Source: Escherichia coli (GTDB taxonomy: Bacteria; Pseudomonadota; Gammaproteobacteria; Enterobacterales; Enterobacteriaceae). From it: a DNA stretch of 19,170 nucleotides. This document shows positions 1,213 to 17,986 of the stretch, in pieces; positions within the stretch are counted from its first letter, which is position 1, and the number at the start of each line of letters is the position of its first letter. Location of the stretch: assembly GCF_003334255.1 (NCBI RefSeq), contig NZ_QOWU01000071.1; one strand, written 5' to 3'. The notes beneath the pieces are model-generated. The model made no database searches, had not been told where the DNA came from, and saw only the letters and a list, made by a program, of their open reading frames with translations. The position numbers were made by a program, and so were the translations under genes.

Positions 1213-4200
1213 ATGACAACGCGTGGCAAAGCTACAGGCAAAAGTGAACGGCTGGCGGTTTTAAATAGCGCCGAGCAGGAGGCACTGTATGGTCTTCCTG
1301 ATTTCGATGATGCACAGCGACTGGAATTCCTGGCGCTGGAGGAATCAGAACTGGCGCTGGCCTGTAGTCGTCAGGGTCTTCACGCTCAAATTTATTGCAT
1401 CCTTCAGATCGCTTACTTTAAAGCCAAACACCTGTTTTTCCGCTTCGGATGGGGTGATGTTAAGGACGACAGTAACTTTGTGCTGAGCCGTTATTTTCAG
1501 GGTGAATCACTTCCGGAGCTGACTCTCACCAGGCACGAGCGCTATGCTCAACGCGAAAAAATCTGCTCACTGTACGGTTACCAACCGTGGTCATCTTCTC
1601 TGTCGCCACAGCTTGAACAGCAGGCAGCCAACATTGTTCACCGGGATGTAACCCCCGGCTTTGTTGCCACGGAGCTGATTATCTGGCTCAACGAACATAA
1701 AATTATCCGCCCCGGTTATACCACGCTTCAGGAGCTGGTAAGCCGGGTCCTTTCTGAAGAAAGGCAGCGTCTGGGACGTATACTGACGGAACAGCTTGAT
1801 GATGCAACTATTGCTGACCTGGGCAGACTGACTGAACGTGATGATACCCTTTCCCGGCTCGCAATCCTCAGGCAGGATGCGCGTGACTTTGGCTGGCGCC
1901 AGATGGTTCACGAACGGGAAAAGCGGGCTATCCTGGAGCCGCTGCACCATAAAGCCTGCGATATTTTGCCAGCACTGAATATTTCGCAGCAAAACCTGCT
2001 GTACTACGCCAGTCTGGCAAATTTCTATACCGTTTACGATCTCCGCAACCTGAAACCGGAGCAGACCCGCCTTTACCTGTTGTGTTATGCCTGGGTTCGC
2101 TATCGCCAGTTCAGTGACAACCTGGTGGATGCGATGTTTTTCCATATGAAACAGCTTGAGGATGAGAGCCGCAGCGTGGCCAGCCAACTCATGGCTGATA
2201 TGCAGGAAAAATACCGGCGCGAAACGTCTAAAATCGGGCGTCTGCTGTCGCTTTATGTTGATGACAGCGTTCCTGACCCCACCACCTTTGGTGAAGTCCG
2301 CCGCCGGGCCTGGAAAATAATGCCCAGGGAGACGCTGAAAACTACAGCACAACGTATGAGCGTGAAGCCCGTCAGCAGACTGGCGCTACAGTGGCAGGCC
2401 GTGGATGGCATGACGGCATTAATACGGCGTCACCTGCGACCATTATATCTTTCACTCGATCTCACCAGCGTGGTCCGGGACAGCCCGTGGGCAGAGGCGC
2501 TTAACTGGCTCAGAACGGTGTTCAGCAAAAAACAGACGCTTTTGCAGCGGCCACTTGAGGAGTGCCCGCAGGTAACGTTACCTGCGCGGCTGCGCCCGTA
2601 CCTGCTGGAATTCGGTGAGGATGGTGAGCCCACAGGCCTGAATGCCGGGCGTTATGAGTTCTGGCTCTATCGTCAGATAAGAAAGCGTTTTCAGGCGGGA
2701 GAATTCCACCTCAATAATAGCCTCCGGCACCGCCATCTTTCTGATGAACTGGTACCGGAAGGGGAACAGGCCACAGTGCTGGCTGAAATGAACATCCCGT
2801 TCCTGCAGAAGCCCATTAAAACACAGCTAAAAAAACTGGCATCCGAGCTGCACCGACAGTGGAAAGTGTTTAACCGTGAGCTGAAACAGGGGAAACTGAA
2901 ACATCTGGAATACGATAAAGAAACGCAGAAGCTGACCTGGCATAAATCGGTGGCCAGCCGTTATAAGTCGCAGAATAAGCGTTTTTATGAGCAACTGCCA
3001 TTCTGCGATGTGACCGACGTCTTCCGCTTTGTTAACGGGCAGTGTCGATTTCTTCCCGCCATGAAGCCGCTGCAACCCCGTTACGCCAAAAAAGAAGCTG
3101 ATGTAGACAGTCTGATGGCGGTCATCGTTGCCCAGGCGATGAACCATGGCAACCATGTGATGGCGCGAACCAGCGATATACCATTCCATGTGCTGGAGAC
3201 CACGTACGAACAGTACCTTCGTCTGGCGTCTCTGCTCACGGCCAATGACTGTATAACCGATGCTATAGAAGCGCTACCGGTTTTTCCGCTCTATTCGTTT
3301 GATCCGGAGACGCTTTATGGAGCTGTTGACGGGCAAAAATTTGGTGTTGAACGTCCGACAGTGAAAGCACGGTATTCACGTAAATATTTTGGTCGTGGTA
3401 AAGGCATGGTGGCCTACACGCTGCTGTGCAACCACATTCCAGTCAACGGATACCTGATTGGCACAAACGACTACGAAGGCCATCATGTATTTGACATCTG
3501 GTACCGCAATACCTCAGCAGTGAAACCCACGGCCATTACCGGTGACATGCACAGCATCAACAAAGCCAACTTTGCGATCCTGCACTGGTTTGGCCTTCGC
3601 TTTGAACCCCATTTTACTGGCCTTAACAAACAACTTCAGGAACTGTACTGCACCAGAGACACGTCAGCATATAAAAAATGCCTGATCCAGCCTGCCGGTC
3701 AGATTGACCTGGACCTTATCACCCGCGAAAAAAGTAATCTTAATCGCATCGTCGCTACGCTGGGGCTAAAAGAAATGACGCAGGGAACGCTGATCCGTAA
3801 GTTATGTACATATACTACGGCCAGCCCGACAAGACAGGCGGTATTTGAATACGATCGGCTGGTTCGCAGCATTTACACGCTGAAGTATCTGCGTGACCCG
3901 CAACTGGAACGCAATATCCGTCGTTCCCAGAACCGCATTGAATCTTATCACCAGCTGCGTGCAGCAGTCGCCAAAGTCGGCGGCAAGAAGGAGTTAACAG
4001 GGAAAAATGACATTGAAACGGACATCAGTAATCAGTGCGGACGGTTGATCTCCAACGCGATCGTTTATTACAACTCCGCGATCCTGTCACGGTTACTGGA
4101 ACGGCTGGAAGCCGAAGGTAACGAAAGGGGCATAGAGACTCTGACCCGGATATCGCCGGTGGCCTGGCAGCACATTTTGCTGAACGGGCATTATACATTT

Positions 4201-4260
4201 CAGAACACTAATGAAATTATTGACCTGGATGCTCTGGTTGTCGGACTAAAACTGGGGTAA
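1213..4260 (+). CDS. tnpA: Tn3-family DDE transposase
   Basis: 1015-aa ORF, the typical size for Tn3-family TnpA; stop codon lies inside the terminal inverted repeat as in Tn3. Confidence 0.92.
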   Translation: MTTRGKATGKSERLAVLNSAEQEALYGLPDFDDAQRLEFLALEESELALACSRQGLHAQIYCILQIAYFKAKHLFFRFGWGDVKDDSNFVLSRYFQGESLPELTLTRHERYAQREKICSLYGYQPWSSSLSPQLEQQAANIVHRDVTPGFVATELIIWLNEHKIIRPGYTTLQELVSRVLSEERQRLGRILTEQLDDATIADLGRLTERDDTLSRLAILRQDARDFGWRQMVHEREKRAILEPLHHKACDILPALNISQQNLLYYASLANFYTVYDLRNLKPEQTRLYLLCYAWVRYRQFSDNLVDAMFFHMKQLEDESRSVASQLMADMQEKYRRETSKIGRLLSLYVDDSVPDPTTFGEVRRRAWKIMPRETLKTTAQRMSVKPVSRLALQWQAVDGMTALIRRHLRPLYLSLDLTSVVRDSPWAEALNWLRTVFSKKQTLLQRPLEECPQVTLPARLRPYLLEFGEDGEPTGLNAGRYEFWLYRQIRKRFQAGEFHLNNSLRHRHLSDELVPEGEQATVLAEMNIPFLQKPIKTQLKKLASELHRQWKVFNRELKQGKLKHLEYDKETQKLTWHKSVASRYKSQNKRFYEQLPFCDVTDVFRFVNGQCRFLPAMKPLQPRYAKKEADVDSLMAVIVAQAMNHGNHVMARTSDIPFHVLETTYEQYLRLASLLTANDCITDAIEALPVFPLYSFDPETLYGAVDGQKFGVERPTVKARYSRKYFGRGKGMVAYTLLCNHIPVNGYLIGTNDYEGHHVFDIWYRNTSAVKPTAITGDMHSINKANFAILHWFGLRFEPHFTGLNKQLQELYCTRDTSAYKKCLIQPAGQIDLDLITREKSNLNRIVATLGLKEMTQGTLIRKLCTYTTASPTRQAVFEYDRLVRSIYTLKYLRDPQLERNIRRSQNRIESYHQLRAAVAKVGGKKELTGKNDIETDISNQCGRLISNAIVYYNSAILSRLLERLEAEGNERGIETLTRISPVAWQHILLNGHYTFQNTNEIIDLDALVVGLKLG

Positions 4261-5420: not shown

Positions 5421-6293
5421 TCAGGGTGAGGCAGTGGCCAGCCGTGTGTAGTTGTTGTTCCGCGACATTATCATGCGCTCCTTCACGCGACGGTCGATTT
5501 CGCGCTTCACGGCTTCCAGGCTTCCCCGGAAACGCCCTTCCGCAATTTCACGCGTCAACTGCCGTTTCACCAGGGTGACAATGTCCTGACGGGTCCGGCC
5601 CGCATCACGGCGCGCACGGGCACGTTTCATGCCGTGGGCCTTGCGCTCTGCCTGGTAACTGCGGAAACGCTCGCGCACAAAACGCCAGGCTCTCGCTATC
5701 AGTTCATCCATACCCAGCGCATCCAGCCCCTGCTTTTTGCGCAGCTTGTTTTCCCATTCCACGCGGCTGCGGCGTGCGGAAGCCACCGCCTCTTCAGAGA
5801 TATCGAGTGAGGCAAACAGTGCCGGCGTGAACGTGATGTCGGTCGGAATGTTACAGCCAATTGTCGGGTCGTATTCCGTCTGGTAGGTCATCAGCCCCAG
5901 CTCAGCCAGGAACTTCAGGGCACGGGTGGCACGGGTGATGGAGAGTTTCCCGGCCTCAGACTCCGTCGCCAGTCCGCACTCAATGGCCAGCGTGGTGATG
6001 GAGCACTGCACGCGGTTGGCCAGCGGGTCATAGTGGAAACACAGCCCCTGCAGCAGCGCATCAATCGCCCTTCGGCGCAGCACTGGCGGCATACGCCGGC
6101 GCAGGCCGCGCGAACGTGCATACGCCACATGCGCGGCAAAATCAAAACGGGAGGTGAAGCCCACGGCCTTTTCCATCAGTTTTTCGCAGAACTTCAGCGT
6201 TCCGGCATCTTCACGGGGTGTGAAGACCGGATTCGGGTTCTTTACCTGACGGTATGTGCTTTCAGTAAATGAGGTCTGGTTCAGGGCCGCCAC
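5421..6293 (-). CDS. repA: IncFII-type replication initiator RepA (RepA1)
   Basis: 290 aa; [86 protein letters not shown] and the C-terminus RLATASP match R1/R100 RepA1 as I recall it, along the whole length. GTG start. Confidence 0.92.
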
Positions 6294-6456: not shown

Positions 6457-7129
6457 ATGGTCTTCTGAAACTTTTTTCAGCCTTCCGGCCCCGGCAAACA
6501 GCCGTCGTTTCTGCCATACATCCTGAATGCCTTATGGCGCATCCTGCCGTTTTCTGACTTTCCGGATCGCGAGGATCCCAAAAGCCACTGCATAACGATC
6601 CGCAATATACCTCGTTTCCACCGCTTTGAAAAGCCGACATGATTTCTCAGGGTTACAGTTGCCCTCTTTAACTCCCCGAAAAAGCGTCGTTTTTTTGAAC
6701 TCTGTCAAAAAAATGAACAATTCCGCAAACGATCTTTTATGCTGTGTTTTTCATCATTTTTAGTAGAAGAGATCGCGTTATTTTTTTAAACGATCTAATC
6801 GTCCACAAATCGCATTTGACTCAGAACAATATACTGCTTTATTTGATGTAACAATCTATTCAACTGCTTATTTGGACTATTGCCACATATGCAACCTTGT
6901 GTAGCATGTTTATCAGCCATTAATCCTGTTTGGGTAATTGGCAGTTTTCGCCCGCCTCGAAACTGTCAAAAAGGCTTACAAGAGTGCACAACGCATGTGC
7001 CTGTCAGAACTGCAGGCCGGGCTGAACGAGGGTCAGCCGCTGTTTCCGACACATGCTTTATGTATTCGCCGTTCACAACAACATCGAAGCCCCCCTGCGG
7101 GGATCGATTTTCGCGGAGCGTTCCGGATT

Positions 7130-7636
7130 TTGAATATCAGTGAATTACATCAACGCAACTGGTATCTGGCACAGTACATTGCTGCCGGTAAAAATCGCGA
7201 ACATCTCTTTTCCTGGCTTTCCGAACAACACGTCCTTCCCTGGACACCCCTGATACTGAAAAAGGTCCGCCGTACGGATAAAGTCTGTGGTTACCGTCGT
7301 CATATACACGCCGTGTTTCCCGGTTACTTCTTCCTGAAAGCAGACCCCGAACGCCACGCTTTCACTCACCTGCGCCGTCACAGTGCCTTTCTGGACTTCG
7401 TGAAAATGGCCGGTGAAATCAAAACCGTCAGGGAGGATATCGTTCAGTCCCTGATGAAAGTGTACCCGGATCCTGCGCTCAATCCGGCAGCCAGGGAGGA
7501 GCTGGATGCTGCCTCCACCCTCTGGCTGACAAAAGCGCGTTACCAGTACCTCCTCCGGCTTGATGCACAGCCTCTGCCGGAGTCGAGGATCGCCCTGCTC
7601 CTGCACCTGGTATCTGATGACGGAGCGTTGACATGA
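7130..7636 (+). CDS. NusG/RfaH-paralog (NGN domain) transcription antitermination-like protein; start codon uncertain
   Basis: NWYLAQY...HAVFPGYFFLKADPE...SAFLDFVKMAG aligns by eye with the RfaH N-terminal domain (WYLLYC...EPLFPNYLFVEFDPE...VSHFVRFG). The ORF is open from 6938 (TTG); 7130 TTG follows a GGAG at 7115-7118. No clear KOW motif in the C-terminal part. Confidence 0.65.
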   Translation: MNISELHQRNWYLAQYIAAGKNREHLFSWLSEQHVLPWTPLILKKVRRTDKVCGYRRHIHAVFPGYFFLKADPERHAFTHLRRHSAFLDFVKMAGEIKTVREDIVQSLMKVYPDPALNPAAREELDAASTLWLTKARYQYLLRLDAQPLPESRIALLLHLVSDDGALT

Positions 7637-7764: not shown

Positions 7765-8280
7765 ATGACCATTCAATCCCCGGAAAACCCTGTCATTCAG
7801 TTACTGGAGAATATGCTTGAAGCGCTCTCCACCTCCCCGGACAGCATCAACAATGAACGACGTCGCCGGCGCTTCCTGCTGAACTGGCTTGATTCCGCCC
7901 GACAGATGAGTGAGTTCAGGGGGATGCCTGAAGAGTTCACCGCCCTGCGCAAACTGCTGGCCACCAATACGGACATACCGGTAGAGAACACGCTGAAATC
8001 ACTGCTGGAAAGTGGCCACAACGCAGCACTGTATGACCTGTACCGCTTCCGAGCAGCGCTTGCCACGTGCAGGAGTCTGGGATGGCAGATTGGCACGTGC
8101 GCATGGAATGACCAGTTACTGAGTGAGACACTTTCCCGCGCACAGACCGGGAAACGTCATATCCTGCAGCTGAACAGCACCGGGGACACCTTTTCCACCA
8201 CGGGCAGAATGATCAGACCGGTGGCATTTTCATTAATCCATCCGGCCACCATCAACACGTCTGAGGTTGAAGAGATATGA
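7765..8280 (+). CDS. Hypothetical soluble protein (171 aa)
   Basis: ATG at 7765 with AGGA 8 nt upstream; longer ORF from 7696 rejected because its start lies inside terminator T2. ATGA overlap with the next gene. Confidence 0.6.
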   Translation: MTIQSPENPVIQLLENMLEALSTSPDSINNERRRRRFLLNWLDSARQMSEFRGMPEEFTALRKLLATNTDIPVENTLKSLLESGHNAALYDLYRFRAALATCRSLGWQIGTCAWNDQLLSETLSRAQTGKRHILQLNSTGDTFSTTGRMIRPVAFSLIHPATINTSEVEEI

Positions 8281-8810
8281 CCGGCATTGGTAACTGGATA
8301 GTCAGCGTGCTGATTGGATATGCTGCTGGCCCCCTGTGGGCTGCCACCCACCTGGGAACAAGCCAGGACCGGGGAAGCCGGGCCGCTTACGGTTACATCT
8401 ACCTGATAGACAGCATGATCAGACCGCTGGTGATGGTATTCGGGTTCTTTTTTGCATCGGTCTCCATCGTGGCCGGCGGCACCATTCTGAATGCGTTGTT
8501 TGGCGCGGCTCTGGTTAATGTGCAGGCGGACTCCCTTACGGGGTTATTCAGCATCGCTGGATTTTTGCTGATTTATGCCCGAGTCTGTACCACGCTGGTT
8601 GCGGCCGTTTTTGCGCTTCAGGCTTATCTGCCTGACCATGTGATTAATTTTCTGGGCGGACGTGACGGCGTTAATATGCTGGGGAATATGGCATCTTCGG
8701 TCAAAGATATTATTGCTGGCGGAAATACCAATATGCGCAGAACACCTGGCGTACGTGAAGAAAAACTGAAAAATATTAAAGGAGATGATAAAGACGGAAT
8801 AAAACAATAA
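8277..8810 (+). CDS. Hypothetical integral membrane protein (177 aa)
   Basis: Several hydrophobic segments (IVSVLIGYAAGPLWAA, LVMVFGFFFASVSIVAGGTILNALFGAAL, LFSIAGFLLIYARVCTTLVAAVFAL), hydrophilic lysine-rich tail; coupled to upstream gene. Confidence 0.6.
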   Translation: MTGIGNWIVSVLIGYAAGPLWAATHLGTSQDRGSRAAYGYIYLIDSMIRPLVMVFGFFFASVSIVAGGTILNALFGAALVNVQADSLTGLFSIAGFLLIYARVCTTLVAAVFALQAYLPDHVINFLGGRDGVNMLGNMASSVKDIIAGGNTNMRRTPGVREEKLKNIKGDDKDGIKQ

Positions 8811-10206: not shown

Positions 10207-10488
10207 ATGCCATCTGCAACACAAACTGCCCGACTGGAAGCAAGAATCAGCACAGAACTGCATGCTATGCTGAAACGCGCTGCAGAAATCCAGGGACGCA
10301 CTATGACCGATTTTATCATTTCTGCCGTTCAGGATGCGGCACAACGCGCTATAGAACAAACCGATATCATCCGACTGTCCCGGACAGATCAGGAAATTTT
10401 TGCTCAGGCATTACTGTCACCAACAGAACCTAATGATGCGCTCAAACGGGCCTTTAAACGCCGTAATAATATTCTATACACAAAATAA
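10207..10488 (+). CDS. DUF1778-type (ribbon-helix-helix) antitoxin of a GNAT toxin
   Basis: 93 aa; AGGAGG RBS; ...LEARISTELHAMLKRAAEIQGRTMTDFIISAV... is typical of TacA/KacA-type antitoxins; immediately upstream of the GNAT gene. Confidence 0.85.
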   Translation: MPSATQTARLEARISTELHAMLKRAAEIQGRTMTDFIISAVQDAAQRAIEQTDIIRLSRTDQEIFAQALLSPTEPNDALKRAFKRRNNILYTK

Positions 10489-10493
10489 ATATA

Positions 10494-10982
10494 ATGTTTC
10501 AGCTGAAACCATTTAACAGCACATATGACAGAACCTCATTTTTATGTGGTTCTGATGCTCTGGACCGTTATATAAAAGAGCATGTCACACAGGATATTCG
10601 ACGACGCATCGCGGCCTGCTTTGTTGCTATAGATAACGATCATCGTATCATCGGATACTATACGTTATCAGCGGCCAGTATATTATTAACTGACTTACCT
10701 GAGCATTTGAGAAAAAAGCTACCACGATATCCTACCATCCCGGCTATTCGTATGGGACGCCTGGCAGTAAGTCTGTCATCAAAAGGAACAGGACTTGGTG
10801 GGACACTTTTAGCTGATGCGCTATATCGTGCATACACATCTGAAATTGCAGCATATGCGCTGATTGTTGATGCAAAAGATGACACGGCAGTCTCATTTTA
10901 CAAACATTATGGATTTATGACGCTCCCGGAGTCAGGGCGAACTTTATTCATGCCACTGGCATCATTATCTGCAATAGAATAA
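10494..10982 (+). CDS. GNAT-family acetyltransferase toxin (TacT/KacT/AtaT-type)
   Basis: 162 aa acetyltransferase fold (…RMGRLAVSLSSKGTGLGGTLLADAL…FYKHYGFM…), 5 bp after the antitoxin stop. Confidence 0.85.
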   Translation: MFQLKPFNSTYDRTSFLCGSDALDRYIKEHVTQDIRRRIAACFVAIDNDHRIIGYYTLSAASILLTDLPEHLRKKLPRYPTIPAIRMGRLAVSLSSKGTGLGGTLLADALYRAYTSEIAAYALIVDAKDDTAVSFYKHYGFMTLPESGRTLFMPLASLSAIE

Positions 10983-11553
10983 CCAGAATAAATCCGGGTA
11001 AAAAAGGGCGCATTGAGGTCAGCCTTCGCAACAATCCGGCGGCAGATTCCCTGCCGCCGTGTTGCCCGTTAACGTTTAACTTCGTAGGCTAACGTTGCCA
11101 CAAGCACCGTATTTCCCTGCTCGATACGAAATCCGCAAAGCGAATCCCTCACCATCCAGACAAAACACAGTATCGTCACACAGAGGACAATTAACATTGT
11201 TAAAAACGTTCGTTGTAGCATCGCAGCCCCTCCATTGCCTTTCGGCCGTTATCGGGCTACTATAATGTTGTCTAGGCATTACAGTAGAGCCCTGGGTTGA
11301 TTGATAAAAAAATCGCCTGGGGCTTCTGCTACATGCCGTCCACAAAACGCTTTCGGCATACAGCCTCAAGCGCCCGCAGCTATTCTAATCGTTTTTCAGT
11401 CTGCCACAATCGTTTTCCATCTAATGACATGTAATGCGCAACGGTATTTTTACGGGAAACAACACGGCAAGGATTCCCGGAACACGTCCATTATTTTATG
11501 GTTACGGACATCATGTTAAATCAGAAAGTAATAATGACCTGAAAGGAAATGGT

Positions 11554-11796: not shown

Positions 11797-11839
11797 CCTT
11801 AGTCTGGACTGAAAACAGTGTCAGCCAGAAATAAACGAT

Positions 11840-11863
11840 CAATGCCTCATACACATGAGGCAT
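11840..11863. terminator. Hairpin between convergent genes (10-bp stem AATGCCTCAT/ATGAGGCATT, 4-nt loop)
   Basis: Seen directly; no strong U-tract on either side. Confidence 0.4.
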
Positions 11864-11888
11864 TGATAACGGTCATAAATAATCTTTA

Positions 11889-13436
11889 TTATTTTTCTGA
11901 TTCAGCATTTCCGGTCAGTACAGGCTCTTCTGGCAAAGACATTACCGGAACGTCACGTTCGCCATTGAATACAGAAACACTTTCGGTGAAACCATTCTGT
12001 AACAAAGAAAAACTTAACGGCAGATTTTTGGTTTGTATCCCTGTGATCCATTGAAAAATCTCGGGAAAACGACGGGCGCTGATATGCACATGATTGAGGC
12101 GGTGCTCAGTAATATCACTTGCCATCATCATGAGAGGCACATCGTATCCCGAACGCAAACCTGGCGCATGATGCACAGGGGTGCTGTCTGAACTGACGGA
12201 TTGCCCATGATCAGAAAAATACAGCATGGCAAAATCATCGCCATGCTCTGTCGTCATGTTATAAATTGCCTGAAGAAACCGATCCAGCTTAAGCAATGTT
12301 GATAAATAACAGGATACTTTATTTCCGAATAATTCCCTGAACGGCTGTGCATCATTAAAAAGTCTGTCACAGGGATTAGGATGGGATCCCAGCATATGAA
12401 TGAAAATCACTTTTGGAGAAGACGAATTAACAGCTTCCCTGACATACTGAAGCATATCTTCATCATCAATGCGACGGGAAGAAGAGTTCCCTTCCTTAAG
12501 AAAATATTTCTTATCCGCACTGGCGGCGATGACAGAAATCAGCGTATCATGTCGCCCTAAAGAGCCCTGATTTGATATCCACCACGTTTCATATCCGGCT
12601 TTTCTGGCAAGCGTAACAATATTATTACCCGGATTACCTGTTTCAGTGTAATCAAGAGTCAGTGTTCTGCTGAGTGAACCTGTCGTATTCGGAGCAGCGG
12701 AGAAATACCCATTAATAAATATACCCGGAGCAGAGTTCAGCCATGGTGTTGTCGGCAAAGGATACCCATAAACAGAAAGATAATCCCGTCTGACACTTTC
12801 ACCAATTACGATAATTATAGTTTTATATTTCTTCTCCACACTCACAATATCCCATGAGTCTTTCTGATTGTTTTTCAGCGATTCATATCGCATCATTTCT
12901 TCTCTGGTTTCAGCTATCCCCGTTATTACATTCGTAACCATACGTTTTGGCCATGCATTTACTGACAATACGATAAAGAACAACAGAAAGATAAATCCCC
13001 GGTGGCTTTTTTCACGCTTACGCCAGAACCAGAATGTAAAAGCAGCAATGACCAGTGAAACAATAAAATAAAAAACAGGTATGCCTGTGATAAATTCACC
13101 TGCCTCATTTATATTTGTCTGCATTACAGACGCAATAAAACTGTTGTTTATTTTTCCGTAAATCATTCCAACCGGAGCATAGAATGCACTTAACAAAAGA
13201 AAGATACAGACACACGTCGCTGAAATAACATTCCGCCGCCCCAACGACATCATCAGGAACAATATAAGTACATTCCCTGTGGCGTTTTTCACTGTATATC
13301 CGCAGCACCATGTAACAAGTACAGAAAACAACAGATAAATCAGTGACTCTTTACACCACAACATAAAATAAAACTGTTTTGCCATCTCAAAAGCACATTT
13401 GGATTTTTCTTTAATACGAGACACGCCAGTCATTTT
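11889..13436 (-). CDS. Phosphoethanolamine-transferase-like membrane enzyme (sulfatase/alkaline-phosphatase superfamily, EptA/MCR/OpgE-like); start uncertain
   Basis: N-terminal hydrophobic helices followed by a catalytic domain with IIIVIGESVRRDYLSVYGYP, KVIFIHMLGSHPNP and AMLYFSDHGQS, resembling the VVGETARADHVSFNGY / MLHQMGNHGP / MLYVSDHGES blocks of MCR/EptA. AT-rich. ORF open to 13445 (TTG); first ATG at 13436. Confidence 0.75.
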   Translation of the reverse strand, partial: KMTGVSRIKEKSKCAFEMAKQFYFMLWCKESLIYLLFSVLVTWCCGYTVKNATGNVLILFLMMSLGRRNVISATCVCIFLLLSAFYAPVGMIYGKINNSFIASVMQTNINEAGEFITGIPVFYFIVSLVIAAFTFWFWRKREKSHRGFIFLLFFIVLSVNAWPKRMVTNVITGIAETREEMMRYESLKNNQKDSWDIVSVEKKYKTIIIVIGESVRRDYLSVYGYPLPTTPWLNSAPGIFINGYFSAAPNTTGSLSRTLTLDYTETGNPGNNIVTLARKAGYETWWISNQGSLGRHDTLISVIAASADKKYFLKEGNSSSRRIDDEDMLQYVREAVNSSSPKVIFIHMLGSHPNPCDRLFNDAQPFRELFGNKVSCYLSTLLKLDRFLQAIYNMTTEHGDDFAMLYFSDHGQSVSSDSTPVHHAPGLRSGYDVPLMMMASDITEHRLNHVHISARRFPEIFQWITGIQTKNLPLSFSLLQNGFTESVSVFNGERDVPVMSLPEEPVLTGNAESEK

Positions 13437-13591
13437 CCTGTACAAAAACAGACAATCATTTCAACGCATGGATATTTATATGAAACAGCTCACAAAAATA
13501 CCCTGCTCTGTCTAGCAAGATTACATATTATCAGGTTTTGTGTTTACAGCAACTGCTCCCCGGACCAGATTATTCGCATAACCCGATGAAT

Positions 13592-13612
13592 GACTCATCA
13601 TTATGATGAGTC
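13592..13612. other. Perfect hairpin GACTCATCA-TTA-TGATGAGTC just downstream of the 151-aa gene
   Basis: Seen directly; possible terminator or regulatory element. Confidence 0.35.
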
Positions 13613-13623
13613 TCAGGATTCAT

Positions 13624-14079
13624 TTAGTTAACAAAAATACTTCTTGCCTTCCCGGAAAGGCAAACATACGAAAGAGAAAGCATGGCTATAATAATATCAA
13701 TCAAAATATGCTCAATCTTTCCTGTTGTCATACATTCAGCACCGACAACATAAAGACAATAAACAAAAGTGACAGCATGGTGTGATATATAAAGAATATA
13801 AATGCACAGAAGTAATTTTCCGACGACTCTTTTCCGTTTAAAGAAAGAATAAATGAAGAACAAGCATAAAGCCGCCAGAAAAAGAAAGGTAGCTATGGAG
13901 ATTATAAAATACTCCATCACCTGTGAATTCTCATCCAGAGATGTGTACAGCGAATAATATGTGGCTGTGAGATTAAGTCCCGTTATCAATATATAAACAA
14001 CTGATAATAGTATAATATAAAGAATCAGACCAAATCTGGTTTTCTGTGCTCTGGTTAATACTTCTGATTTATCTCGCAT
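13624..14079 (-). CDS. Hypothetical integral membrane protein (151 aa), AT-rich
   Basis: About four hydrophobic segments; no family recognised; upstream of the transferase-like gene on the same strand. Confidence 0.5.
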   Translation of the reverse strand: MRDKSEVLTRAQKTRFGLILYIILLSVVYILITGLNLTATYYSLYTSLDENSQVMEYFIISIATFLFLAALCLFFIYSFFKRKRVVGKLLLCIYILYISHHAVTFVYCLYVVGAECMTTGKIEHILIDIIIAMLSLSYVCLSGKARSIFVN

Positions 14080-14166
14080 AAAATATCCTGTCTGTAATCT
14101 GTCCCGGTAAACAATGGTAAACGTCAGAATCAGTGCGAATACGGTAACAAAGATTCCTCCTGTGCT

Positions 14167-14847
14167 TTAAAGTGTGTAGGCAGAAACCAGTCTGGTGGTT
14201 CCGGTCAGGGTGTCTGATACCTCAACTTCCCGGGTGACTATCACCATACCTGACTGACGCAGTCTCTGCACATCAGCTGCAATTCGCTGAGTTCCCGGCC
14301 AGAACAGACCATCCAGCGCGGTGACAATTAACCCGCTTTCCAGCGCCAGTTTCAGCCGTGCTGTCGGGGCTTTAACCTGCCCGGCGATATCAGTGAAACA
14401 ACGCGTCGTCATGCCATAGCTGTCCACCCGCCGTATTCGCGTCGCAAGACTGTAGCTGAAGCAATCCGGCACGCCGGATAAGTCATTCTGCAGACTGTAT
14501 ACACATCCCCGCTGCCGCCCATTGAACAGGACTTTTTTCTGGCTGAGCAGCCATTCCCGCCGCAGGCTGTCAATCATCTGCGGGGTCCGCGTTAACAGCA
14601 GACGAAACGGCAGCTCAAAACTGGTCACATAATCAACATTAAGTAAGGCTGTCCGCAGCCGTTCCCTGGCACCTGCTCCGGTATCACGGCATTCACGCAT
14701 GACATCTTCCCACTGGCGCATCAGTTGCGGAGACTTATGCCTGGCCCTGAACTGATATTTCTCAATCTGATAATCAATATATTCCTGCATACCGTCACCG
14801 GATATCTGTTGCCGTCTCATCACGGATATCAGCGTACTGGAATTCAT
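14167..14847 (-). CDS. Hypothetical protein (226 aa)
   Basis: Long ORF with GC content above its neighbours; divergent from the nuclease gene. No family recognised. Confidence 0.55.
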   Translation of the reverse strand: MNSSTLISVMRRQQISGDGMQEYIDYQIEKYQFRARHKSPQLMRQWEDVMRECRDTGAGARERLRTALLNVDYVTSFELPFRLLLTRTPQMIDSLRREWLLSQKKVLFNGRQRGCVYSLQNDLSGVPDCFSYSLATRIRRVDSYGMTTRCFTDIAGQVKAPTARLKLALESGLIVTALDGLFWPGTQRIAADVQRLRQSGMVIVTREVEVSDTLTGTTRLVSAYTL

Positions 14848-15436: not shown

Positions 15437-16104
15437 GATATCTCACAGGAATATATTTCCTGCCGTTTTATTTCCCCTGTTAGTCTCCAGCGGGAAATAA
15501 CATCCAGAAGTTACACTGATATGAATAATAAACCTGTTCAATGTGTCCGTCACTAAAGTGAACTCAGCCCCTTATGGAAAATATTGTAAATGATGGATGA
15601 ATGCTGAATACATTTCCCGGGGAGTGGCAGAAACAGATAAGTTGATGTCTGACTCAGAAGAAAATACGCCTGTAGCGCCCTGCATTTCATAACATTTCTG
15701 TTACAGCAACAACGAAAGCCGACAGTAATGCCGGGCTTTTACGTCCACATGCATATTCCACTTATCCGGAATTGTGACACAGCACCTGAATACAGGATTG
15801 ATCACCGGTGCCCACAAATGGCACATTTTCAGTAAGATTCCGAATGTTACATTACCCCGTCATGTGTGACGCAGTTGTCACCGGGAAAGAAACAGAAAGC
15901 ACATGAAAAACATAAAAACTCACACAGGACTCCTTATCCACAAAGAACAAACACGACGCGTTCGTCTTCATGAAACACCGGCCGCCTGGTGCCTCACACA
16001 CCGGGAATGCTACAGCAAAACAACCGGTCGCCGCTGCGGCAGCCCTGACAGTCTCAGCAGGCTGATTCTGAGCAGCATTCAGCCCATAGAATGAGATAAC
16101 CCGT

Positions 16105-16470
16105 ATGAATGATGACAGACAGACGCCTCCGGCACCCGATGCATGGAAAATCCGATTTCTGGCTGACGGTACACCCGGCACATGGTTTTACACCGATGAC
16201 GCAGCCGTCACAAAAGAGTGGCTGCGGGCACATTGTGACGATGTGGAAGTGATCCCCCTGTGCCGTATGCATGACGGTCCCGTTTTCCGGGAACACCATA
16301 TTAATGAACTCAGCGCCGCACTGGCCAGAATGCTCCATATGCACCACATACTGCTGGAACGAACCCGGTACAGAGAAAATATCCATGATGCAGAATGTAT
16401 TCGTGAAATTCACGAAGCTCCCCTGCAGGCTATCGGCATCCTGGAAAAATACAAACGCACAAAATCATAA
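16105..16470 (+). CDS. Hypothetical protein (121 aa)
   Basis: First gene of a compact three-gene plus-strand cluster; no family recognised. Confidence 0.45.
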   Translation: MNDDRQTPPAPDAWKIRFLADGTPGTWFYTDDAAVTKEWLRAHCDDVEVIPLCRMHDGPVFREHHINELSAALARMLHMHHILLERTRYRENIHDAECIREIHEAPLQAIGILEKYKRTKS

Positions 16471-16479
16471 GGCTGTTCT

Positions 16480-16671
16480 ATGTGGATACTGATTTTCTGG
16501 CTCTCATCCCCCTTTAATGTCTCCTCCGGCGATGCCCGGCAACCCACACTGGCCGTTCACAGTCAGGAGTTCCGTACTGAAAAAGCCTGTCGGGATGCCT
16601 TCACCGCGCTGAAAAAAGAAAACGTGGGAGAATTTGCTCTCCGGGGCGTCTGCGTCCCCGGCGGAGAATAA
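16480..16671 (+). CDS. Hypothetical small protein (63 aa) with hydrophobic N-terminus
   Basis: AAGG 9 nt upstream; MWILIFWLSSPF... could be a signal or anchor segment. Confidence 0.4.
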   Translation: MWILIFWLSSPFNVSSGDARQPTLAVHSQEFRTEKACRDAFTALKKENVGEFALRGVCVPGGE

Positions 16672-16704: not shown

Positions 16705-17028
16705 ATGGCATACCATCCCCCGGATGTCACACGGCATTATCCTTATCTGCGCCGGATGTCCTGGGCGCAGATAACGGCAGCAGCTGAAGATGCGGAAATA
16801 CATCATGATTATGCCCGGGCATTAATATTGTGGCAGCATGCATATCATGCTGCCACGTTGACCATTAACAAAAACCTGGCAACCGCTAAAATCCACTTCT
16901 GTGCTAAACGCCTTCAGATACGTGAACAAATGAGCAGGATAATCCGGAATACTGGCACAGACGAAATACTCTTCCGTCTGAGTAAACACCATCATTTATA
17001 TGAGAAAAAGAAAACAAAAGAGGGGTGA
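16705..17028 (+). CDS. Small helical protein (107 aa), possibly ANR-like (AraC negative regulator family); tentative
   Basis: AGGAG RBS 8 nt upstream; the ...YARALILWQHAYHAA...FCAKRL... pattern resembles ANR-family proteins as I recall them. Not verified. Confidence 0.45.
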   Translation: MAYHPPDVTRHYPYLRRMSWAQITAAAEDAEIHHDYARALILWQHAYHAATLTINKNLATAKIHFCAKRLQIREQMSRIIRNTGTDEILFRLSKHHHLYEKKKTKEG

Positions 17029-17176: not shown

Positions 17177-17287
17177 TTATCTGTCAACCAGTTCCCGGAT
17201 CAGCTCCAGGATAGCTATCACTGCATTGGCCACAGCAACAACAGCCCTGAGAACGATGATTAACAGGTTAATCATCCGCTTCTCCAT
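17177..17287 (-). CDS. Type I toxin-like small hydrophobic peptide, copy A (36 aa; 32 aa if started at second ATG)
   Basis: MEKRMINLLIIVLRAVVAVANAVIAILELIRELVDR; GGAG lies 7 nt upstream of the second ATG (17275). Copy B differs almost only at synonymous sites. Confidence 0.6.
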   Translation of the reverse strand: MEKRMINLLIIVLRAVVAVANAVIAILELIRELVDR

Positions 17288-17534
17288 CAATGGAGAAAGA
17301 ACGCCGTGGTTTGCCCTTACATTGCCTGTCGCCACGTTTTCTATAGTGTCAGTTATAGACAGTTCTTCTCCGGCCAGAGCACCAAAACCAGCACCACCTG
17401 ATGTTTTGGCCAGGACTTGCAATCTGTTCATCCCTGGAACGATATGCCGGAAAGAACGTACCTCAAGGCTGACACACCGAGTATATACTTATACGATGCT
17501 TGCAGAAATATTATTTCAGCCGTATTATTTCATA

Positions 17535-17621
17535 GTCAGTTATAGACAGTTATCTTCCGGTCAGGGCTACCAAGTTCGATCCGGAATCGTAAAAAAACCG
17601 GCCTCACCAGTCGGTTTTTTT
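17535..17621 (+). ncRNA. Candidate antitoxin small RNA, copy A
   Basis: Sigma70-like promoter TTGCAG-17 nt-TATTAT (17500-17528); intrinsic terminator ACCGGC-CTCACCA-GTCGGT plus seven T (17597-17621). 5' region 17535-17551 is a direct repeat of 17348-17364, hence complementary to the peptide mRNA leader. Confidence 0.4.
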
Positions 17622-17878
17622 ACATCTGTATATATCTGCTCCGGACTGCGCCCTGAGTCTCCCGTTGAAAATTGCCTTTTGAATTTTACGAAATACGGCA
17701 AATGGTGGATGGATGTCGAATATATTTCCAGGGGAGTTCCGGGGAAAAGCCGGCTCATGTTTGACTCACGGGAACAGACGCTGGAAGTGCAGAAAGATTT
17801 TCGATTTTTAACCTGAGCATATTTTGTTAAAGGGCAGAAGACGGTGACCCTCTGCCCTTAAGTACGTTTCCGGGATTA

Positions 17879-17986
17879 TCAGTCAACCAGTTCCCGGATC
17901 AGTTCCAGGAGAGCTATCACTGCGTTAGCCACAGCAACAACCGCCCTGAGAACGATGATTAACAGGTTAATCATCCGTTTCTCCAT
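17879..17986 (-). CDS. Type I toxin-like small hydrophobic peptide, copy B (35 aa)
   Basis: MEKRMINLLIIVLRAVVAVANAVIALLELIRELVD; versus copy A five synonymous changes, one I-to-L change and loss of the terminal Arg. Confidence 0.55.
   Translation of the reverse strand: MEKRMINLLIIVLRAVVAVANAVIALLELIRELVD

Follow-up and report, generated by a model that had tools for sequence, protein, structure and literature searches.

An OpgE/YjgX-like phosphoethanolamine transferase and a DUF2569 protein in an AT-rich two-gene cassette of Escherichia coli plasmids

Two adjacent genes and a complete active site

A stretch of 19,170 nucleotides from Escherichia coli (contig NZ_QOWU01000071.1 of RefSeq assembly GCF_003334255.1; the whole stretch that was analysed is called the window below) carries two adjacent minus-strand genes, one for a phosphoethanolamine (PEtN) transferase and one for a small membrane protein. 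A preliminary description of this DNA had reported a PEtN-transferase-like open reading frame (ORF) with a Ser at the predicted nucleophile position, next to an unknown membrane protein. It was found that the transferase-like ORF is real (11889-13445, minus strand, with Pfam Sulfatase and EptA_B_N matches), and so is the ORF of 151 amino acid residues (aa) with four helices just upstream on the same strand (13624-14079, four hydrophobic segments). The latter does encode a membrane protein, but "unknown" no longer applies, as the protein belongs to the DUF2569 family and is co-inherited with the transferase. The main features are as follows; the catalytic residues are numbered according to the 511-aa RefSeq form of the transferase.

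11823..14168, no strand assigned: AT-rich two-gene cassette of 2346 bp, PEtN transferase plus DUF2569 gene (homology break against an IncI1 plasmid, L005; GC content)
11889..13433, minus strand: coding sequence of the PEtN transferase (ORF list, Pfam, RefSeq, start kept in a second allele, ratio of nonsynonymous to synonymous substitution rates, dN/dS)
12870..13376, minus strand: N-terminal membrane domain, about residues 17-185 (AlphaFold2 secondary structure, Foldseek, EptA_B_N)
12024..12824, minus strand: periplasmic sulfatase-fold catalytic domain, about residues 201-467 (Pfam Sulfatase; matches to the EptC, EptA, and MCR-1 catalytic domains in PDB)
12795..12803, minus strand: G208-E209-S210 motif, in which E209 is the zinc-ligand Glu (alignments; codons checked)
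12684..12686, minus strand: Thr247, the predicted nucleophile, corresponding to NmEptA T280 and MCR-1 T285 (invariant in 47 sequences; codon ACG)
12381..12383, minus strand: His348 of the G-S-H motif, corresponding to NmEptA H383 and MCR-1 H395 (invariant; codon checked)
12207..12212, minus strand: Asp405-His406 of the S-D-H-G motif, zinc ligands corresponding to NmEptA D452/H453 (invariant; codons checked)
13624..14079, minus strand: DUF2569-family four-helix inner-membrane protein of 151 aa (Pfam DUF2569, 7.8e-07; four hydrophobic segments)

The transferase ORF has three candidate start codons: TTG at 13445 (518 aa), ATG at 13433 (514 aa), and GTG at 13424 (511 aa, RefSeq WP_016232748.1). 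A divergent allele has kept the ATG at 13433, and the true length is therefore probably 514 aa. In the 518-aa ORF, Pfam Sulfatase covers residues 208-467 (E=3.5e-39) and EptA_B_N covers residues 60-159 (7.4e-07).

Is the Ser of the GESVR motif the nucleophile? The query was aligned pairwise by HMMER to EcEptC, to full-length NmEptA (5FGN), and to MCR-1. Two multiple alignments, one of 24 sequences by MAFFT and one of 47 homologues with 27-95% identity to the query, agree with the pairwise results. Residue roles have been described for NmEptA (E240, T280, D452, and H453, plus H383 and H465), MCR-1 (E246, T285, H395, and H466), and EcEptC (E245 and D461) in a 2023 review (PMC10525099). It was revealed that the Glu of the query GESVR aligns with the zinc-ligand Glu of all three enzymes (NmEptA E240, MCR-1 E246, and EcEptC E245), and that the motif of EcEptC is itself GES. 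In NmEptA, the G-E motif is G239-E240, and T280 follows 40 residues later within CGTSTAHS; the T280 column is occupied by the first Thr of the query PNTTGS. In MCR-1, E246 lies inside GETAR, while T285 lies 39 residues later in CGTST and is aligned to the same query Thr. The nucleophile column of the query is thus Thr247, about 38 residues downstream of the G-E-S motif, and the Ser that had been taken for the nucleophile is S210, directly after the zinc ligand E209. The earlier reading arose because the Thr of the MCR-1 GETAR motif was assumed to be catalytic, but what GETAR carries is Glu246. A Ser nucleophile is ruled out by the three pairwise and the two multiple alignments.

G208, E209, S210, T247, G346, S347, H348, D405, H406, and G407 are invariant across the 47 sequences. 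T103 and E107 are conserved in at least 90% of them and are equivalent to NmEptA T110/E114, which are located in the periplasmic helices lining the substrate pocket. H418 or H419, in a region that is poorly aligned, is the probable counterpart of NmEptA H465. The G-E-S motif is usual in OpgE, YhbX, EptC, YjgX, and all of the query homologues, while G-E-T is found only in EptA, EptB, and MCR. As judged from these alignments, the nucleophile of the query is a standard Thr, the active site is complete, and the transferase is apparently catalytically active.

The fold agrees with this assignment. An AlphaFold2 model based on the 47-sequence alignment (mean predicted local distance difference test score, 87.3; predicted template modelling score, 0.81) begins with an N-terminal helical bundle, which is followed by two short helices, a long bridging helix, and an alpha/beta domain. 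Its membrane domain consists of transmembrane helices, the two short periplasmic helices bearing T103/E107, and the long bridging helix. The model was used in place of Kyte-Doolittle predictions, which gave inconsistent helix counts (3-5) across paralogues. In a Foldseek search against PDB, the top catalytic-domain match was the EcEptC periplasmic domain (E=1.2e-18), and full-length matches were obtained to NmEptA 5FGN (547 aligned columns, template modelling (TM) score 0.60) and to the cryo-electron microscopy structure of MCR-1 (9nww_B, TM score 0.62). Both the domain plan and the catalytic residues are those of the EptA-like superfamily (COG2194; YhjW/YjdB/YijP/YbiP).

Branch of the family and inheritance of the cassette

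The catalytic blocks had been described as matching EptA/MCR-type enzymes. Membership in the PEtN transferase family holds, but the likeness to EptA and MCR in particular does not, with identities of 21-23% and scores far below the NCBIfam cut-offs. When the query was aligned to members of the family, as had been proposed in the preliminary description, an intact YjgX was the nearest, followed by OpgE. The BLASTP results against the K-12 paralogues and the intact YjgX, together with a plasmid-encoded enzyme, are as follows.

Intact YjgX: 52% identity, 477 aa, E=3.5e-176
OpgE: 32% identity, 481 aa, E=3.6e-74
PEtN transferase of a 5-kb ColE1-like plasmid: 31% identity, E=1.9e-68
EptC: 23% identity, E=5.6e-27
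YhbX: 27% identity, catalytic domain only, E=7.8e-23
EptA: 23% identity, E=7e-12
EptB: 23% identity, E=5e-10

The match to MCR-1 (E about 1e-7) is confined to the catalytic domain. Among the NCBIfam models, the best was CptA (101 bits against a cut-off of 404); the EptA models gave 81 and 49 bits against cut-offs of 561 and 660, and the MCR models gave 18-27 bits against cut-offs of 1100-1250. The scores lie under every cut-off, and thus no curated family claims the transferase. In a neighbour-joining (NJ) tree, the query and a 73%-identical plasmid allele stand beside the YjgX group within a wide OpgE-like clade, and YhbX, EptC, EptB, and EptA fall outside that clade. By its sequence relationships, the transferase is an uncharacterised member of the OpgE/YjgX branch of the well-known EptA-like family.

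The gene had also been described as plasmid-borne and AT-rich, with a foreign origin suggested by its base composition. An E. coli plasmid typed as IncK2/Z (NZ_CP060058.1) is 100% identical to the window over the compared 3.6 kb, which bears out the plasmid location. Four plasmids gave further 100% matches to the 3.6 kb, and about 100 others matched at roughly 92%. Both genes are already annotated in RefSeq on NZ_CP060058.1; the three minus-strand genes are named there "phosphoethanolamine transferase" (WP_016232748.1, 511 aa), "DUF2569 family protein", and hypothetical protein, the last being an ECs1377-family protein with a helix-turn-helix. The two genes are located in an I-complex backbone, between a small ORF on the pnd side and the ECs1377-family gene. 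The limits were set by comparison with the IncI1 plasmid L005, which lacks the cassette. The homology to L005 ends at window position 11822 and picks up at 14169, with exactly two genes in between. The GC content of 11823-14168 is 39.1%, against 49.3% elsewhere, and this is the lowest 2.3-kb stretch of the window; by gene, it is 33.8% for DUF2569 and 40.9% for the transferase. Thus, the AT-richness relative to the backbone is confirmed, and the segment does look foreign to the backbone. No flanking direct or inverted repeats that would mark a transposon or an integration site were found at the cassette ends. A phage origin was rejected; a tblastn search of 50,697 phage records gave only distant CptA/EptA-like matches (<30% identity and <75% coverage). 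L005 has two small hypothetical genes at the cassette site instead. The window ORFs at 15903-16670, across the nuclease gene from the cassette, are 72% identical to those L005 genes (L005 4985-5749).

Some part of the three-gene region was matched in 402 of the 5426 complete E. coli genomes, and at least 80% was matched in 111 (about 2%). All but one of the 478 matching places are on plasmids. The cassette is present on only about a quarter of the plasmids having this backbone segment. The cassette is carried, among others, by plasmids of the IncK2/Z type (pECOED) and by IncI1/IncFIB hybrids from Shiga-toxin strains (pO104_H7). Between these carriers, the nucleotide identity of the cassette genes is 94.5-96.7%, while that of the flanks is 77-93%. 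A cassette more similar than its flanks suggests spread by recombination. The dN/dS values are low, 0.20-0.29 for the transferase and 0.15-0.38 for DUF2569, and thus both genes are under purifying selection.

In a metagenome contig (SRR25011136_80978; L020, positions 1751-3929), the same backbone site is occupied by another, divergent pair of alleles. The gene order there is a nuclease gene, the ECs1377-family gene (93% identical), a DUF2569 gene (53% aa identity), and a 514-aa transferase gene (74% aa identity). Compared with the window, this looks like an allelic replacement of the cassette. The presence of two divergent allele pairs at the same site is good evidence, at the level of sequence, that the two genes work together.

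Is DUF2569 a general partner of PEtN transferases? The family of this DUF2569 protein is very small, 10 representatives at 50% clustering among 1.84 billion proteins, and the pairing was checked in the contigs of four of them. Only L020 has the same DUF2569/transferase pairing. In L021, whose DUF2569 protein is 45% identical, an unrelated ORF comes next; the DUF2569 gene of L023 is on a colicin plasmid with no transferase gene downstream; and the contig of L022 is too short to show the downstream gene. A general partnership was thus rejected, with the pairing in one of the four.

Two sequence features lie at the ends of the gene pair.

11838..11867, minus strand: hairpin with a perfect 13-bp stem and a T-rich tail (inverted repeat, 22 nt past the transferase stop codon)
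14107..14121, plus strand: exact direct repeat GTAAA-N5-GTAAA, GTAAACAATGGTAAA (28-42 nt upstream of the DUF2569 start)

The hairpin is likely the terminator of the cassette. The direct repeat is an exact CpxR-consensus-like sequence. It has one match in the window, against 0.01 expected, and it is kept in the plasmids L018 and L019, which carry the first allele with about 5% divergence, but is absent from the second allele (L020). The repeat is too near the start codon for a classical activator site. It is a weak lead to a candidate regulatory site. No RcsB box was found upstream at up to two mismatches. For PmrA and PhoP boxes, only two-mismatch matches inside or across coding sequence were obtained, and these were rejected.

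Proposed function, alternatives, and plasmid setting

I consider it fairly probable that the product of the larger gene is a catalytically competent inner-membrane PEtN transferase from the OpgE/YjgX branch, with a glycan rather than lipid A as the acceptor, in an accessory two-gene cassette with DUF2569 at a single fixed position in I-complex (IncI1/K/B/O/Z) plasmid backbones. For the mechanism and the lipid donor, I infer the ping-pong scheme described for MCR-1 and EptA (PMC10525099) by homology to these enzymes. The N-terminal helical membrane domain would bind phosphatidylethanolamine at the membrane/periplasm interface. The zinc site (E209, D405, and H406, with H348 nearby) would activate Thr247, which would take PEtN from the lipid to form a covalent PEtN-Thr247 intermediate, and PEtN would then be handed to the acceptor. 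The conservation of T103/E107 is consistent with PEtN transfer from phosphatidylethanolamine. The most likely acceptor would be a hydroxyl group on a sugar of an envelope glycan, for instance a periplasmic glucan, the lipopolysaccharide (LPS) core, O-antigen, or another surface polysaccharide. Because of the clade placement, with one characterised relative at 32% identity, such a hydroxyl is a more likely acceptor than lipid A phosphates. The preliminary description was sound in holding that the substrate could not be inferred from the family and need not be lipid A; OpgE, the nearest characterised enzyme, modifies periplasmic glucan.

Several points weigh against this proposal. The acceptor class is drawn from a single relative at 32% identity, and specificity is known to shift between close branches. 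The tree and the comparisons leave out Lpt3, Lpt6, PetG, and PptA. E. coli already has a chromosomal opgE gene, so that a role in glucan modification would be redundant. The transferase gene is split by the insertion sequences IS1 or IS3 in several plasmids and is thus dispensable. Some GenBank records call the product "lipid A phosphoethanolamine transferase", though this is automatic naming. In the literature searched for the plasmid gene, YjgX, and the accessory genes of I-complex and IncK2 plasmids, there was nothing functional and no experiment on the plasmid transferase or YjgX.

A mobile lipid A PEtN transferase of the mcr-like or eptA-like kind, which would lower polymyxin binding, is an unlikely alternative reading of the same gene. 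The two-domain fold and the catalytic residues are the same as those of EptA and MCR-1, and the name in the GenBank records also points to lipid A. The plasmid location with an adjacent gene for a small membrane protein superficially recalls the mcr-1/pap2 and mcr-3/dgkA arrangements. However, the identity to EptA is low, MCR-1 is matched in the catalytic domain alone, and the NCBIfam MCR/EptA models give 18-81 bits against cut-offs of 500-1250. In the tree, the query groups with OpgE and YjgX and is separate from EptA and EptB. In addition, the AMRFinderPlus calls in PLSDB leave the gene unflagged, although ireA and espP are flagged on the same records, and the searched literature held no report tying these common I-complex plasmids to colistin resistance. 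The missed EptA/MCR thresholds, the lack of a resistance flag, and the lack of a literature link fit a gene that does not confer colistin resistance, although they do not prove it. Since lipid A phosphates are an unlikely acceptor, no colistin resistance of the mcr type is expected from the gene.

A protein acceptor, for example the pilin of the type IV thin pilus of the plasmid or an adhesin, is very unlikely. PEtN transferases with protein acceptors exist (PMC10525099 and PMC4406763). The models for such a reading would be PptA of Neisseria, with PilE as its acceptor, and EptC of Campylobacter, with FlgG as its acceptor. I-complex plasmids encode a type IV thin pilus (PMC10286972), and the cassette lies on the transfer-region side of the backbone, where its neighbours are excA, pnd, and nuc. 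In contrast, the plasmid of the window has an intact cassette without most of the transfer genes, only a minority of the plasmids with the backbone segment have the cassette, and the closest relatives, of the YjgX type, are located in chromosomal islands without pilus genes.

It is equally doubtful that the transferase gene is a decaying passenger without function. The IS1 and IS3 insertions, the pseudogene status of the chromosomal relative yjgX in K-12, and the many truncated clusters in the protein database are consistent with decay. However, the frame in the window is full length and has kept all of its catalytic residues, alleles that differ by 3-5% in nucleotides give a dN/dS of 0.2-0.3, and two divergent allele pairs are both intact. 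The weakest alternative, a Ser-nucleophile variant of the family like BcsG, which uses Ser (PMC10525099), has the Ser after the conserved Gly-Glu (GESVR) where MCR-1 has GETAR in its favour, but it has next to no probability, because the G-E-S/T motif holds the metal-binding Glu and not the nucleophile, the nucleophile column is the invariant Thr247, and G-E-S is standard in OpgE, YhbX, EptC, and YjgX.

Under the favoured reading, a glycan-modifying transferase with a DUF2569 partner, one extension may be considered, although it is improbable as it stands. The two genes might be a self-contained cassette for surface remodelling by the plasmid, forming an extra layer of exclusion or immunity beside excA. 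If this were true, PEtN on the host LPS core, O-antigen, or another glycan would alter the binding of phages, of host defences, or of the PilV adhesin on incoming I-complex thin pili. DUF2569 would then be a new specificity or regulatory subunit, and diversifying pressure on the surface interaction would account for the presence of two divergent allele pairs at one site.

What these results offer in practice is a correct label for the gene, which is found on about 110 sequenced plasmids and is sometimes automatically named as a lipid A enzyme. The evidence speaks against reading it as an mcr-like colistin-resistance gene; its place is in the OpgE/YjgX branch, where the single characterised member has a glycan as its substrate. 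The unusual feature that had drawn attention to it, a Ser nucleophile, does not exist, and the rest is unsurprising for the field. The cassette is a compact, easily cloned two-gene version of the uncharacterised YjgX branch and is convenient for finding the acceptor, and the pairing gives DUF2569 its first testable partner. A genome-wide association study of bloodstream E. coli isolates linked unitigs that map to "putative opgE" genes next to the pap island with the portal of entry (PMC8946752).

The rest of the window is as follows. A serine recombinase/resolvase gene (489-1064) is divergent from the adjoining gene for a Tn3-family transposase (1213-4260, 762 bits), which lies beside the replicon. 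The RepA replication initiator is of the IncFII/I-complex type (5421-6293, 592 bits), and it is followed by an RfaH/NusG-like protein gene (6938-7636; NusG family in RefSeq). Of DotA/TraY, no more than a C-terminal part of 177 aa is encoded, at 8277-8810, directly before excA. The plasmid is typed as "mobilizable" and not as conjugative. Thus, the transfer region upstream of the traY 3′ end, at minimum, appears to be deleted. Addiction-type genes are grouped around the cassette (10207-11221 and 17177-17974); they comprise a DUF1778/GNAT toxin-antitoxin pair (10207-10982), a Hok/Gef (pnd-like) toxin gene on the minus strand (about 11069-11221), and two DinQ-like dqlB type I toxin genes (about 17177-17275 and about 17879-17974). 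The ORF at 16705-17028, whose sole NCBIfam match is ANR (AraC negative regulator), at 28 bits with a cut-off of 32, is named "flagellar biosynthesis protein FlgM" in RefSeq, perhaps wrongly. A scan of four proteins against the anti-phage defence catalogue PADLOC gave no match.

Comparison with known transferases

The YjgX type is the closest relative. It shares the length, the domain order, and all catalytic residues with the query, the two are sister groups in the tree, and both are horizontally mobile accessory genes. The settings differ. YjgX is intact in about 490 of the 5426 complete E. coli genomes, beside a tyrosine integrase gene at tRNA-Leu and a beta-barrel gene, and YjgX-type genes in general lie beside a tyrosine integrase gene at tRNA-Leu or other tRNA islands with an outer-membrane beta-barrel partner gene. 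In contrast, the query is in an I-complex plasmid with a DUF2569 inner-membrane partner and no integrase. A Salmonella YjgX relative has the same beta-barrel pairing. "Putative opgE/YjgX" genes have been noted in tRNA islands and near the pap island, where they remained uncharacterised (PMC6174562 and PMC8946752). The beta-barrel gene consistently precedes chromosomal or island YjgX-type transferase genes (L006 6034-8447 and L015 4054-6503). In K-12, ompX and opgE are also adjacent (L007), but they are convergently transcribed. The adjacency of beta-barrel and transferase genes may hint at a functional link.

OpgE (YbiP) transfers PEtN onto osmoregulated periplasmic glucans (PMC3818809) and is the sole characterised E. 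coli member of the OpgE-like clade. Its membrane and sulfatase plan is that of the query, and the two also have in common the G-E-S motif, a Thr nucleophile, and both the GSH and the DHG motif. However, it is a paralogue and not an orthologue, as indicated by the 32% identity, the separate NJ subclade, and the presence of opgE in the E. coli core genome. The opgE gene forms a single-gene operon (PMC3818809), and its K-12 neighbourhood has no annotated DUF2569 gene, while the query has one. The Pasteurellaceae have OpgE-like enzymes though they have no periplasmic glucans (PMC4406763). Thus, the clade has other acceptors too.

EptC/CptA, the PEtN transferase for LPS core heptose-phosphate, is the best match in NCBIfam and PDB by sequence and structure and shares the G-E-S motif, but it is only 23% identical and lies outside the OpgE/YjgX clade. 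EptA/PmrC, NmEptA, and MCR-1 to MCR-10 share the fold (TM score about 0.6), the zinc ligands, the Thr nucleophile, the His, and the T/E pair with the query, and differ in the low identity (21-23%), in having G-E-T where the query has G-E-S, and in the clade. BcsG has Ser at the nucleophile position (PMC10525099), where the query has Thr247.

Lpt-O (Opt) of Shigella flexneri pSFxv_2 is likewise a plasmid-borne PEtN transferase of similar length. Kinship with the query was rejected, since BLASTP gave no match from the query and at best 18 bits in the reverse direction; Lpt-O is annotated as a member of the lipoteichoic acid (LTA)-synthase family and is encoded on a 6.85-kb plasmid typed as non-mobilizable. 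As an O-antigen PEtN transferase, it is a precedent for a plasmid that changes a surface glycan (PMC3458804).

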